From contig CAYOPI010000016.1 of assembly GCA_964405825.1 (NCBI GenBank), positions 1 through 27,497 of the forward strand: DNA of 27,497 nucleotides, in the 5' to 3' direction. The notes under the pieces are model-generated. The model searched no databases. It had not been told where the DNA came from and saw only the letters and a program-made list of their open reading frames with translations. Each line of letters starts with the position of its first letter. The stretch's first letter is position 1. Shown here one piece after another: positions 9,894 through 12,850 of the stretch. The stretch comes from an uncultured Opitutales bacterium. Its GTDB lineage: Bacteria > Verrucomicrobiota > Verrucomicrobiia > Opitutales > JBHJGM01. A program made the position numbers and the translations under genes.

Positions 9894-12158
9894 TTGCGCG
9901 ATACTGAAGTCTGCACCGTGCAGACACTGACCGAGTCCTCCGCTCATGCCGCGCTCGAATCCCGGGAGGCGTTCGCGCAGGCCCTGACCTTTGCCGAAAC
10001 CTTCACCGAGCGCTTTGCCCAGTGCAAAGACGCCAACCCGGCCGAACGCGAAGCCGTTCTGCTGGCGGTCCAGTTCCCGGCCATCCTCCAACCCGTCGAA
10101 CCCGGCGACGCCTTTGCCGGGCGCATCCGTTACGGGTTGGTCGGCTTCAGCCCGGAGCCCGGCGGCCTCGGCTACTTCTGTGCGCGGCGCTTCATTGAAC
10201 CCTGGCTGAAGTCCGGCGCGCCCGAGCAACTTGGCATCGAAGCCGACGCCCTCGACCGCCTGCGCACCGTCCTGGAATTCTGGCACGGGCGTACGACCGC
10301 CGAACGCGTCCGCGCGGCCTTCCCGCCCCACCTGCAAGCCACCCTCCCCAGCGACGCCTGGACCGAGGACAGCGGCGTGGCCTTCCCCCTCTACCGGATG
10401 GCCGGGCTGACCCTGGACTTCGCACGCCTGCTCAACCGCGGCCTTGATGGCCTGGAAGCCGACTGCCACGGCGAGGGACCCCTTCGCGCTGCCTGGCGCT
10501 CGTGCCTGCAGACCCTGCGCACGTCCATCGCCCACTACGCGTCCGAACTCGACGCAAGCGCCCAGCTCGACCCCGACGGATCGATTCGTACCAGCCTGCA
10601 ACACGTCGAGCACGGCCCGCCCGATTGCCTGCGCGACGCCATCCAGCTGCTCTGGCTTTACGCGCTGCACGCGGGCGTCTGGAACTACGGGCGTCTCGAC
10701 ATCACCCTCAGCCCCTTTCTCGACCGCGACCTGCAGTCCGGCCGCCTCGACCAAGCAGGCGCGCTCGACCTGCTGTGCGGCTTCTGGCGTCTGCTCGCGC
10801 ACTACGACAACCAGTACAATAACCGCATCATCGTCGGCGGGCTCGGGCGCCCGAACGAAGCCCAGGCGGACCACTTCGCCCGTCTTTGCATCGAAGCCAC
10901 CCGTCGCCTCCGGCAGAACCAGCCCCAGCTCACGCTGCGCTTCCACCAGGACCAGTCGCCCGAAGTCTGGGCCAGTGCCATTGACGCCATCGGCGAAGGC
11001 TGCACCTACCCGATGCTCTACAACGACGACGTCAACGTGCCCGCCGTCGCTCAGGCCTTCGGCGTCGACGAGGCGATCGCCCGGCAGTACACGCCCTTTG
11101 GCTGCGGTGAGTACGTGCTCGGCCCGCACAGTGTCGGCACCCCCAACGGCGTCATCAATCTGCTCAAGGCAGTCGAGGTCGCTCTACACGGCGGCATCGA
11201 TCCGCTCACCAACCAGCGCCTGCTGCCGTTGCCTGACACCTTCGGCAGCTTTGATGCATTCTGGCAGGCTTACACACAGGTGGTGGAGCACTTCGTCACG
11301 GCGATGGCCGACTTTCAGTCGCTGGAGTACCGCGTCACCAACGCGCAGGCGCCATTCCTTTTTGCCAGCCTGTTGATGGACGGCTGCCTCCAAACCAACG
11401 CCGGCGCGCTCTCGGGCAAGGGCCCGCTGCACCTGGGCGGCACCCTCGAAACCTACGGCAACACCAACGCCGCCGACAGCCTCCACGCCATCAACGAACT
11501 CGTCTTCCGCCAGGGAACACTCTCGCTGAATGACCTCCGGCAGGCCCTTTCAGCCGACTTCAAGGGCTTCGACGACATCCGCCGACAGTGCCAGCGCGTG
11601 ACCAAGTACGGCAACGACGAGGGCACTGCTGACGCCATGGCGGAGCGGGTCCACCTGCACGTCTGTACCGCCACCCGCGCACAGGCCCAGCGCGTCGGCC
11701 TCGACAGCTACCTCGTCGTCATCATCAACAATTGGGCCAACACCATCCTCGGCGCGCACACCGCCGCCAGCCCCGATGGACGCCTGCGCGGGGAACCCCT
11801 GGCCAACGCCAACAACCCCTCGCCCGGCAGCGACACCCACGGCGTGACCGCTTTCCTCAACTCGCTCGCCCGCCTCGACCCCGCCCTGCACGCCGGCTCA
11901 GTCCAAAACATGAAGTTCAGCCGCGAGTGGTTCAGCCCGCAAATGCGCCCGAAGTTCGAGGCCCTGCTGGCAACCTACTTCGCCAACGGCGGCACGCAGG
12001 CCATGATCACCGTGGTCGCTCGCGAAGACCTGCAAGCCGCCCTGGTTGAGCCTGAGAAATGGGGCCACCTGATGGTGCGTGTAGGAGGATTCTCGATACG
12101 CTTTGTCGAGCTGCCTCGCGAGGCCCAGCTGGAAATCCTTAACCGTACGCTGCATTGA
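9894..12158 (+). CDS. Glycyl radical enzyme (PFL-family fold) of the Cys-x-Glu (eliminase/dehydratase-type) subclass; substrate unknown
   Basis: C-terminal glycyl-radical motif ...MVRVGGFSIRFVELPREAQLEILNRT. Active-site loop YTPFGCGEYVLG has C-x-E rather than the CC of PFL. 754 aa. The start codon is uncertain (TTG 9894 or a nearby GTG). A radical-SAM activase follows immediately. Confidence 0.85.
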   Translation: MRDTEVCTVQTLTESSAHAALESREAFAQALTFAETFTERFAQCKDANPAEREAVLLAVQFPAILQPVEPGDAFAGRIRYGLVGFSPEPGGLGYFCARRFIEPWLKSGAPEQLGIEADALDRLRTVLEFWHGRTTAERVRAAFPPHLQATLPSDAWTEDSGVAFPLYRMAGLTLDFARLLNRGLDGLEADCHGEGPLRAAWRSCLQTLRTSIAHYASELDASAQLDPDGSIRTSLQHVEHGPPDCLRDAIQLLWLYALHAGVWNYGRLDITLSPFLDRDLQSGRLDQAGALDLLCGFWRLLAHYDNQYNNRIIVGGLGRPNEAQADHFARLCIEATRRLRQNQPQLTLRFHQDQSPEVWASAIDAIGEGCTYPMLYNDDVNVPAVAQAFGVDEAIARQYTPFGCGEYVLGPHSVGTPNGVINLLKAVEVALHGGIDPLTNQRLLPLPDTFGSFDAFWQAYTQVVEHFVTAMADFQSLEYRVTNAQAPFLFASLLMDGCLQTNAGALSGKGPLHLGGTLETYGNTNAADSLHAINELVFRQGTLSLNDLRQALSADFKGFDDIRRQCQRVTKYGNDEGTADAMAERVHLHVCTATRAQAQRVGLDSYLVVIINNWANTILGAHTAASPDGRLRGEPLANANNPSPGSDTHGVTAFLNSLARLDPALHAGSVQNMKFSREWFSPQMRPKFEALLATYFANGGTQAMITVVAREDLQAALVEPEKWGHLMVRVGGFSIRFVELPREAQLEILNRTLH

Positions 12159-12850
12159 TTCAGGAAGGACCAGTTACCGGCATCGTCTTCGACATTCAGC
12201 GTGCCTCGCTGCATGACGGACCCGGGCTGCGCACAACGGTTTTCCTCAAGGGCTGCCCGCTGCGTTGCGCCTGGTGCCACAATCCCGAATCCCAGAAGCT
12301 CCAGCCGGAAACCGGCCAGTCCGGCAAGGTCTATGGCGAGCCGATGAGCGTCGACACGGTGATGGAAGCCGTGCTTGCCGACCGTGCCTACTACAAGCGA
12401 TCCGGCGGCGGGCTGACCCTCTCCGGCGGCGAACCGACGGTGCAGTACGACTTCTGCCAGGCCCTTCTGCAAGCCGCGCGCGCGCAGGGCATCCACACCT
12501 GCCTGGACACCTGCGGCCACGTGCCCACCGACAAGCTCCTCGCCCTCGTCCCCCTGGTCGACCTCTTCCATTTCGACTACAAGGCCACGGGCGCCGACGT
12601 CTGCCAGCAGTGGACCGGCGTCGACGGCCAACTCATCGAGCACAACCGCCAGGCCCTCCTCAAAGCCGGCGCCAGCCTCTGCCTGCGCTGCCCAATCGTG
12701 CCCGGGGCCAACGACTCCGCCGAGCACCTGCGCCGCCTCGACCAGTTCGCCGCCAGCGGCGCCTACACGCACGTCGAACGCCTCACCTACCACGACACCG
12801 GCCGCGGCAAGTACGCCGACCTCGGGCGCACCCCGCCCGCTTTGCCCTAG
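12155..12850 (+). CDS. Glycyl-radical enzyme activating protein (radical SAM, PflA-like, short form)
   Basis: DGPGLRTTVFLKGCPLRCAWCHNPES carries the CxxxCxxC cluster, and GGGLTLSGGEP is the SAM-binding motif. It overlaps the GRE stop (ATTGA). TTG start assumed. Confidence 0.85.
   Translation: MIQEGPVTGIVFDIQRASLHDGPGLRTTVFLKGCPLRCAWCHNPESQKLQPETGQSGKVYGEPMSVDTVMEAVLADRAYYKRSGGGLTLSGGEPTVQYDFCQALLQAARAQGIHTCLDTCGHVPTDKLLALVPLVDLFHFDYKATGADVCQQWTGVDGQLIEHNRQALLKAGASLCLRCPIVPGANDSAEHLRRLDQFAASGAYTHVERLTYHDTGRGKYADLGRTPPALP

Follow-up and report, generated by a model that had tools for sequence, protein, structure and literature searches.

A glycyl radical enzyme and activase of uncharacterised specificity from an Opitutales bacterium belong to a widespread family with its own active site

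A 27,497-nucleotide stretch of contig CAYOPI010000016.1 (GenBank assembly GCA_964405825.1; hereafter the window), from an uncultured Opitutales bacterium, carries a gene for a glycyl radical enzyme (GRE) followed by a gene for its radical-SAM activase. Sequence comparison indicates that the two are an intact pair of uncharacterised specificity, set apart by a Cys-x-Glu (C-x-E) GRE with an active site of its own and an RVGGFS glycyl radical loop, by the reduction of its activase and by the oxygenase that accompanies relatives. New chemistry is strongly supported insofar as the GRE equals no known enzyme, whereas the evidence on the nature of that chemistry is circumstantial. On balance, we lean towards a radical 1,2-eliminase or ring-opening GRE acting on a sugar-derived substrate, perhaps as the anaerobic counterpart of a PhyH-family oxygenase.

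Both open reading frames (ORFs) of the pair, 754 and 231 codons long, exist where a first-pass annotation of this DNA had placed them, and translation reads the loops FGCGEY and RVGGFS exactly as it reported. Pfam matches of the GRE (PFL-like PF02901, 1.4e-78; Gly_radical PF01228, 3.4e-16) and of the activase (Radical_SAM and Fer4_12, both ~1e-14) lie far beyond chance. The GRE has the PFL-like barrel and C-terminal glycine-radical domain of the PFL-like branch of the superfamily, an RVxG[FYW] loop in which the radical is predicted to form at Gly732, a Cys loop with the catalytic Cys, and its cognate activase adjacent, and its G-C404-G-E406 loop is of the C-x-E type found in GRE 1,2-eliminases and isomerases (residues are numbered from TTG 9894). 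Although the frame opens at TTG 9894 as annotated, the true start is probably GTG 9918, since the public database copy of the protein (P0001) has 746 residues and the VQTLTE after this codon agrees with the family N-terminus M-K/Q-T-L-S/T-E. The enzyme, which had been called compact, is so only modestly at this length (pyruvate formate-lyase (PFL), 759 residues; PflD, 765–781; glycerol dehydratase, 787). Its stop codon TGA (12156–12158) shares the four nucleotides TTGA with the TTG of the activase (12155–12157), and through this overlap the activase appears to be translationally coupled to the GRE. The activase itself reads CPLRCAWC (CX3CX2C) for its cluster motif at nucleotides 12254–12277, and SGGEPT is also present in its translation.

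The GRE lies far from every characterised member of its superfamily. It scored 249 bits against the NCBIfam model TIGR01774 (PFL2-3 subfamily; cut-off 678), 180.4 and 154.8 against those for HpsG and HpfG (both 1000), 178.8 against the CutC model TIGR04394 (1050), 169.6 against the model for HypD, hydroxyproline dehydratase (1100), 156.1 against PflD (1109), 153.6 against indoleacetate decarboxylase (1100) and 130 against hydroxyphenylacetate (HPA) decarboxylase (1150), while the PFL model TIGR01255 matched only the C-terminal 185 residues (59.8 bits; cut-off 994). An AlphaFold2 (AF2) model (pLDDT 85.3, pTM 0.88) compared with all solved GREs using Foldseek gave template-modelling (TM) scores of 0.75–0.81 at 17–24% structure-based identity. 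These scores and identities together rule out orthology to any characterised GRE. PFL (PflB/TdcE) is further ruled out by the G-C-G-E loop, which has no adjacent Cys-Cys pair, and CutC by the absence of an Asp from the aligned His-equivalent loop; HypD, HpsG/HpfG, PflD and the two decarboxylases are excluded because all fall below their equivalog cut-offs. The first-pass annotation had proposed an eliminase-type C-x-E GRE of uncharacterised specificity, taking more than 50% identity to a characterised GRE as the sign of the contrary, and this description holds.

Profile searches place the family at no particular distance from any one relative. The best single-sequence PDB match of the GRE was CutC (1.1e-56), and the family profile scored glycerol dehydratase at 364 bits, the propanediol dehydratase 9RCO at 344, CutC at 343, the propanediol dehydratase 5I2A at 326, YbiW at 320, PflD at 279–282 and IslA at 276, a spread so narrow that the family is roughly equidistant from all eliminases and isomerases. 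A superfamily review of June 2026 counts only a few dozen characterised GREs and describes whole clades without experimental validation (PMC13450708); none of the characterised enzymes it lists corresponds to the window GRE, and a literature search found no description of the family or of the gene cassette in which its relatives occur.

The clade to which the GRE belongs is large, uncharacterised and apparently isofunctional. A word-indexed search returned >120 clusters at 50–62% identity and 720–790 residues, the named ones labelled 'pyruvate formate lyase family protein' or 'pyruvate-formate lyase', and an exhaustive search of representatives found ~100 full-length clusters at 50% identity, above ~350 bits. 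Our locus survey, at one genome per species, gave 135 matching loci, of which 80 were kept, from about ten phyla: Verrucomicrobiota, Planctomycetota (Phycisphaerae, Brocadiia), Acidobacteriota, Bacteroidota, Bacillota (Ruminiclostridium cellobioparum, Lachnospiraceae, Acutalibacteraceae and Robinsoniella), Spirochaetota, Victivallales, Armatimonadota and KSB1. Samples came from soil, peat, marine, rumen, termite and gut sources, glycan-degrading settings throughout. Over 81 distinct family sequences of 35–60% overall identity, the catalytic residues are essentially fixed (C404 in 81, E406 in 80, G732 in 81), as are R168 (79/81), G171 (80/81), R311 (80/81), P417 (79/81), I611 (78/81), N612 and N613 (80/81 each) and N616 (77/81). 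Near-invariance at such divergence argues for one shared function, and R168, R311, N264, N612, N613 and N616, near-invariant and polar, are candidate pocket residues.

The glycyl loop, which the first-pass annotation called atypical, is indeed RVGGFS, although it is a signature of the family rather than a local oddity (G731 in 79 and F733 in 74 of the 81 sequences). GREs usually have Ser, Ala or Cys immediately before the radical glycine, and Gly731 departs from this pattern. The unusual feature of the loop appears to be this Gly at position -1 and not the Phe, which is already known after the radical glycine in HPA decarboxylase (RVAGFTQ; PMC13450708).

Active sites were compared by aligning the family profile with PDB sequences, anchored on the conserved D175 and its helix. 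C404 and E406 fall on C433 and E435 of glycerol dehydratase and on the C-x-E of propanediol dehydratase, CutC and YbiW, and RVGGFS falls on the RVAGYS of the same four enzymes. The C-x-E pair is kept by all characterised GRE 1,2-eliminases and isomerases, its Glu forming a hydrogen bond with the substrate hydroxyl (PMC13450708). Elsewhere the pocket has been replaced. His164 of glycerol dehydratase, which protonates the departing hydroxyl (PMC13450708) and is a His in the aligned glycerol dehydratase (1R8W), both propanediol dehydratases (5I2A, 9RCO) and YbiW, corresponds to Gly171, so that the general-acid His expected of a GRE C-O dehydratase is absent. His281-Ser282 gives way to a two-residue deletion followed by Thr/Val262-Trp-Asn, Tyr339 to Tyr/Phe308 followed by the inserted, invariant Arg311, Asp447 to Pro417 and Tyr640-Pro-Ser642 to Ile611-Asn612-Asn613; none of the residues that mark glycerol and propanediol dehydratases (Ser282, Asp447, Tyr640, and Ser642 or Val) is found. 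Judged from this alignment, the family keeps the radical machinery and C-x-E and has neither diol-binding residues nor the usual acid.

This pocket bears directly on whether the GRE could be an ordinary, merely divergent dehydratase of small diols such as glycerol, 1,2-propanediol or ethylene glycol, which we consider highly improbable. Glycerol and propanediol dehydratases are the top profile and structure matches and share the C-x-E loop, yet their lead over CutC, YbiW and others in profile scores is small, the replacements at His164, His281/Ser282, Asp447 and Tyr640 are family-wide, and the TIGR01774 score is well under half its cut-off. Neither a microcompartment shell nor an aldehyde dehydrogenase or 1,3-propanediol dehydrogenase lies nearby, and the regulators found beside relatives are sugar-type AraC proteins.

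Gene context in relatives supplies the remaining evidence. The first-pass annotation saw no operon context, which is true of the window, where the GRE has no divergent AraC gene and no PhyH orthologue directly upstream, but relatives carry the GRE and its activating enzyme (AE) in an AraC-(PhyH)-(TIM)-GRE-AE cassette amid glycoside hydrolases (GHs). Of 83 family loci, about 70 have the activase adjoining the GRE and at least 45 have an AraC-type regulator there, usually divergent; the closest NCBIfam relatives of this regulator are RhaS, RhaR, ChbR and AraC. Between AraC and GRE stand a PhyH-family protein in 25 loci (counted by BLAST) and a divergent xylose-isomerase-like TIM barrel in 10. 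The flanks of relatives further contain GH2, GH31, GH43, GH3, GH130, GH127, fucosidase-like enzymes, esterases, LacI regulators and sugar transporters, and no microcompartment shell, aldehyde dehydrogenase or sulfite-handling gene was found among them.

The PhyH partner, 58–87% identical across >100 clusters, keeps the HxD...H iron triad together with the 2-oxoglutarate Arg and is therefore a true oxygenase and not a halogenase. All 19 loci from Bacillota, a phylum whose members are mostly anaerobes, lack it. Two loci, L086 (Pelagicoccus mobilis) and L088, have the AraC-PhyH-TIM cassette with no GRE directly downstream, and in L086 a separate GRE lies ~5 kb away. Overall, the oxygenase can be found by itself, Bacillota have the radical module by itself, and in Verrucomicrobiota, Planctomycetota and Bacteroidota both are placed under a single AraC, a distribution that would be expected of O2-dependent and O2-independent solutions of the same step. 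The model of the TIM barrel (pLDDT 93.7) resembles Art22, IolE, UlaE, allulose 3-epimerase, AsbF, YcjR and AtOGE (TM 0.53–0.70); such a predicted fold of the keto-sugar isomerase, epimerase, dehydratase or beta-eliminase type would fit a carbonyl product of the GRE.

From these observations we infer elimination chemistry, a sugar-type substrate and an 'anaerobic twin' relation to the oxygenase. In the mechanism we envisage, the activase would form the Gly732 radical, which would then move to Cys404; Cys404 would take a hydrogen atom from the carbinol carbon of the substrate, while Glu406 would remove the proton from the hydroxyl on that carbon. The resulting ketyl radical would eject a substituent from the adjacent carbon, giving 1,2-elimination, or ring-opening isomerisation if the leaving group is tethered. 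The product would be a carbonyl compound, on which the TIM-barrel enzyme, if the locus has one, would then act, and the GRE and the Fe(II)/2-oxoglutarate (Fe/2OG) dioxygenase would offer O2-independent and O2-dependent routes for the same difficult bond cleavage. The substrate is most likely a sugar-derived molecule freed in plant or algal glycan breakdown, and candidates for the leaving group are a methyl or anhydro ether and an anionic group (sulfonate, sulfate or phosphate). A more specific version, namely an undescribed GRE reaction that removes a recalcitrant substituent from a free sugar or sugar acid independently of O2 and is paired with an Fe/2OG dioxygenase making the same cleavage with O2, is a tentative proposal that we consider rather less probable.

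Several observations weigh against a sugar eliminase paired with an oxygenase. The glycine at position 171 stands where glycerol and propanediol dehydratases and YbiW have their general-acid His, which makes plain departure of alkoxide or hydroxide less obvious unless another residue serves as acid (Tyr167, Tyr265, Tyr308, Tyr407 and Glu519 are candidates). The list of pocket residues rests on the glycerol dehydratase alignment and on the known active site of that enzyme, and the AF2 model is of low confidence at residues 613–623 and 637–646 and in the glycyl loop (727–736). None of AraC, PhyH and the TIM barrel adjoins the pair in the window, and the TIM-barrel family is very large and also occurs alone in unrelated contexts. 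The gene context of the GRE identified no substrate: clustering of ORFs from 86 sources and Pfam searches of 275 flanking genes found nothing common to more than ~6 loci, and no transporter, kinase or downstream enzyme is conserved beside the GRE in the flanks. With no conserved neighbours beyond the cassette, genome context is unable to name the substrate.

One special case of the sugar eliminase reading, to which we give limited credence, is that the GRE removes the methyl ether of an O-methylated sugar or opens an anhydro ether by radical beta-alkoxy elimination, with PhyH doing the same job oxidatively. Candidate substrates are 4-O-methyl-glucuronate, 2-O-methyl-fucose or -xylose and 6-O-methyl-galactose, or else unphosphorylated 1,5-anhydro-glucitol or -mannitol (YbiW and PflD use the 6-phosphates). 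What favours ether cleavage is the precedent of YbiW and PflD, GREs that cleave ether C-O bonds in sugars (PMC13450708), and the recurrence of Rieske and URO-D neighbours. Demethylation-type enzymes recur near the GRE or PhyH, namely the Fe/2OG dioxygenase itself in its 25 loci, a Rieske, FA_desaturase and reductase fusion in L086, L041 and L007, and URO-D-family proteins in L073, L070 and L087. Xylan- and pectin-type neighbours (CE1-type esterases, BD-FAE, GH43, GH127, apiosidase, rhamnosidase and a pectate-lyase fold) also occur, and lyxose/mannose isomerase, mannitol dehydrogenase and GH130 lie near PhyH cassettes; these last neighbours are reminiscent of a Sinorhizobium route that reportedly converts 1,5-anhydromannitol to mannose by C-1 oxygenation. 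However, departure of an alkoxide should need a general acid, and the His that YbiW and the dehydratases have is Gly171 here. URO-D and Rieske neighbours are scarce (3–4 loci each of ~85), no methanol- or formaldehyde-handling genes were seen in the flanks, and a neutral sugar would leave the two invariant Arg residues unexplained, although a uronate would explain them.

Somewhat less probable still is a GRE that, like IslA, IseG and HpsG, acts as a C-S or C-O lyase, ejecting sulfite, sulfate or phosphate from a sulfo-, sulfated or phosphorylated sugar or polyol, for instance sulfoquinovose or one of its derivatives. In favour of such an anionic leaving group are the loss of the His and the invariance of two Arg residues; gene context lends it no support. 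CutC, whose leaving group needs no protonation, has no dehydratase His in the same alignment; the window family has Gly171 there. The sulfonate lyases presumably have no such His either, and we assume that their Gln occupies the His164-equivalent position. Arg168 precedes Gly171 by three residues and may be the counterpart of the first sulfonate-binding Arg of these lyases, which hold the sulfonate with an Arg four residues before the Gln and with a second Arg (PMC13450708); the family, too, has a second invariant Arg (Arg311). This equivalence of Arg168 to IslA Arg189 rests on residue spacing and not on a residue-level alignment, and the position matching IslA Arg678, by residue offsets only, is Ile611/Asn612. 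In L004/L008 a His_Phos_1 phosphatase stands in for the TIM barrel, and the cassette of L003 has a neighbour from GH31, the family of the sulfoquinovosidases. A GRE that acts directly on sulfoquinovose has yet to be described (PMC12890257), so such a niche would be open. Against this proposal, the flanks contain no sulfite exporter or reductase, sulfonate transporter or conserved sulfatase, and the HpsG and HpfG models reach less than a fifth of their cut-offs.

It is equally improbable as the diol dehydratase that the pair is a roleless orphan or decaying remnant that has lost its AraC/PhyH/TIM context. The window does lack an adjacent cognate regulator and partner genes, and it also lacks the operator-like motif seen in the Puniceicoccaceae clade, but neither ORF is truncated or has lost any family-invariant residue, the activase retains CX3CX2C, GGEP and its coupled start, and the leader upstream of the GRE bears non-random repeats. 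At least 17 other loci, including all those from Acidobacteriota, likewise have only the GRE and its activase, with no cassette partners.

The activase offers a second subject of interest. Described in the first pass as a minimal PflA-type enzyme, it does have PflA-like architecture, with a radical-SAM domain only, but by sequence it is of the TIGR02494 type (245.9 bits, above the cut-off of 174, whereas the PflA model TIGR02493 gives 160.6 against 231.75). Insert-bearing activases of its own GRE family, to which it is 44–53% identical, have a ~48-residue, eight-Cys insert and a C-terminal tail of ~25 residues that it has cleanly lost. The insert carries two CxxCxxCxxxC motifs, and no such ferredoxin domain (~50 residues, eight Cys) follows CX3CX2C in the window activase. 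In a survey of 70 family activases, the motifs were absent from 38, mainly from Verrucomicrobiota and Acidobacteriota, and kept by 32. The window activase thus looks like an eliminase-type enzyme that lost its ferredoxin insert. Since only the activases of PFL and ribonucleotide reductase are known to consist of the radical-SAM domain alone, and the function of the ferredoxin domain is unknown (PMC13450708), a natural loss series is of interest by itself: activases with and without the domain are a ready-made natural experiment on its role. Lineage-specific loss would show that the domain is dispensable for activating an eliminase-type GRE, a conclusion that, taken jointly with the oxic/anoxic pairing, we hold only tentatively.

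GREs perform chemically hard steps of anaerobic metabolism. If the proposed pairing with the oxygenase is correct, glycan degraders of about ten phyla would own, for a single carbohydrate-catabolic step, one enzyme for oxic and one for anoxic conditions, and if the substrate is a sugar decoration beyond the reach of hydrolases, the GRE would fill a gap in the full mineralisation of plant and algal polysaccharides without O2. The pairing also offers a concrete design for a test, in which one inducer serves both enzymes and O2 is either present or absent. GRE clades that lack characterisation are no rarity (PMC13450708), but the present one has an unusually wide distribution and brings with it a model open to test.

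The CATCAA repeats noted in the first pass are real: three of the seven CATCAAR occurrences in the window, counted on both strands, lie within 9842–9890, and with the neighbouring elements they are candidate sites for a direct-repeat-binding regulator. The FNR/CRP-type site suggested for the same region was not borne out, with no TTGAT-N4-ATCAA at two or fewer mismatches in 9753–9917. The leader also gave no sigma-70 consensus match and no Rfam family or riboswitch, and its RNA fold is not significant (z = -1.65). RNA of the palindrome over the start codon folds as a 7-bp hairpin, and this element could be an operator or a translational brake. Further upstream, an inverted repeat may mark the transcript end that parts the DUF4034 gene from the GRE; the terminator scan missed it, as it has no T run. 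In eight non-duplicate loci of the Puniceicoccaceae clade, the operator-like motif TCACAATAGAGCACTTTTTTGC lies beside the divergent AraC start, and it does not occur in the window even at six or fewer mismatches. The best FNR-like box of the window, TTGATTCTTGTCAA (13673..13686, one mismatch), is found not upstream of the GRE but in the gap between the gene for the small membrane protein and the 3' end of moaE.

Table 1 Features of the GRE–activase pair and its leader in the window, with positions of two elements in loci of relatives.
Feature	Position (strand)	Remarks
GRE gene	9918..12158 (+)	Likely start GTG 9918 (746 aa); longest ORF from TTG 9894 (754 aa)
Activase gene, radical SAM, 231 aa	12155..12850 (+)	Radical-SAM domain only; TIGR02494 match; CX3CX2C and GGEP
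Cys loop G403-C404-G405-E406	11100..11111 (+)	Thiyl-radical Cys and Glu of C-x-E; within PFGCGEYV, nt 11094–11117
Glycyl radical loop R729-V-G-G732-F-S734	12078..12095 (+)	Within MVRVGGFSIR, nt 12072–12101
Motif F164-P-L-Y167-R168-M-A-G171	10383..10406 (+)	From profile-to-PDB alignments anchored on conserved D175/helix
Motif Y304-D-N-Q-Y308-N-N-R311	10803..10826 (+)	Tyr308 opposite Tyr339 of glycerol dehydratase; Arg311 a family-specific insertion
Strand L607-V-V-I-I611-N612-N613-W614-A-N616	11712..11741 (+)	Stands for the Y640-P-S642-S-I-N strand of glycerol dehydratase
Activase deletion point	12317..12331 (+)	Around residues 55–59, ..PETG/QSG/KVYG..; from activase alignment
Intergenic leader/promoter region	9753..9917 (+)	Three direct CATCAAR copies, with AAATTTGC and AAATTGC elements nearby
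CATCAAR copies	9842–9848, 9853–9859, 9884–9890	Three within 49 nt
Perfect 17-bp palindrome GTCTGCAC-C-GTGCAGAC	9909..9925 (+)	Covers GTG 9918; unique in the window
Inverted repeat TGAGCCCT..AGGGCTCA	9750..9790 (+)	Begins at the stop codon of the DUF4034 lipoprotein gene
Operator-like motif TCACAATAGAGCACTTTTTTGC in relatives	L001 6299; L004 6116 (= L008 6134); L005 2792; L006 6136; L011 7058; L013 1990; L014 6303; L033 7099	
Rieske fusion in relatives	L086 2821..5106; L041 13652..16030; L007 13935..16229	

Around the pair, the window encodes an SPFH protein, an ORF without a Pfam match and a DUF4034 lipoprotein upstream, and a small membrane protein downstream, followed on the other strand by moaE, moaD, moaC and moeA. 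About 6 kb past the activase, a PhyH gene (18482..19336, -) diverges from an AraC gene (19418..20308, +) in the order seen in the cassette; these two were ruled out as displaced cassette genes, the PhyH protein giving BLASTP E values of 0.018–0.14 and the AraC likeness lying mainly in the helix-turn-helix.

Loci of relatives show further arrangements near the GRE. The Rieske fusion (~760 residues; FA_desaturase, Rieske and NAD_binding_1), 58–59% identical among three Verrucomicrobiota loci, lies within a few kilobases of the GRE, and in L086 it diverges from the AraC gene of the GRE and is followed by a BD-FAE esterase. URO-D-family proteins, of the corrinoid methyltransferase fold, stand beside the GRE in L073 (5281..6462, -) and L070 (12194..13306, +), and in L087 (7907..9067, +) one directly follows PhyH, where GRE and activase would stand. 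In a Ruficoccus metagenome-assembled genome (MAG; L004/L008, 7000..7849), the TIM barrel is a 79-residue remnant and the His_Phos_1 phosphatase (188 residues) sits between PhyH and GRE. Acutalibacteraceae MAGs carry a second, unrelated GRE after the activase (L077 10891..13131, L079 3714..5180 and L074 6949..7191); that of L077 has 746 residues, the glycyl loop VRVTGFTA, no GCxE loop and ~25% identity to the first GRE, and the copies in L079 and L074 end at the contig edge.

Elsewhere in the window, a tight array of 11 tRNA genes (4535..5612, +) comprises His, Asp, Glu, Leu-CAG, Lys, Gln-TTG, Pro-TGG, Arg-ACG, one 'tRNA-???', Gln-CTG and Phe, several of which look odd: the Leu gene is only 77 nt long, the Pro gene is 98 nt and one has no assigned anticodon. 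The array sits in a stretch of lower GC (0.56–0.59, against ~0.65), and there is no long ORF at ~3700–4530. The SPFH/Band-7 protein (5829..7559, +) has a long N-terminal extension that by eye appears internally repeated, and the ORF after it (7513..8433, +; 306 residues) has no Pfam match. A 536-residue ankyrin-repeat protein (16875..18485, +) is unusual in a bacterium, and the large ORFs at 20381–21872, 23703–25568 and 25340–27439 had no Pfam match on the strands tested.

Among known systems, the glycerol dehydratase of Clostridium butyricum (1R8W/1R9D) and the propanediol dehydratases (5I2A/5I2G, 9RCO) share with the window GRE the ten-stranded GRE barrel (TM ~0.8), the C-x-E Cys loop, the C-terminal glycyl radical domain and a TIGR02494-type activase. 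They differ from it in being only 21–22% identical, in reading RVAGYS rather than RVGGFS and in Ser642 of glycerol dehydratase, which is Asn613 here; the window family also has no microcompartment or aldehyde-handling context. The window activase, for its part, resembles PflA and NrdG in consisting of a radical-SAM domain only (PMC13450708), with CX3CX2C and GGE present, but, falling below the TIGR02493 cut-off and above that of TIGR02494, it is no orthologue of PflA.

CutC and the C-S lyases IslA, IseG and HpsG are likewise C-x-E eliminases, and CutC, like the window family, lacks the dehydratase His; they are 20–24% identical to the window GRE, CutC has an Asp inserted at the His position that is absent here, and the window family has no choline or sulfonate gene context. 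YbiW and PflD (8ID7, 8ID0, 8YJO), ring-opening GRE isomerases of 1,5-anhydro-glucitol and -mannitol 6-phosphate, are C-x-E enzymes whose substrates are sugar derivatives and which break a C-O ether bond beta to the carbinol (TM 0.76–0.79). Like the window family, they are presumably not associated with microcompartments. At 22% identity, however, YbiW keeps the His (AHLAVNF) where the window family has Gly, and regulators and partner genes differ: the E. coli loci include phosphotransferase system, kinase and aldolase partners, none of which accompanies the window family.

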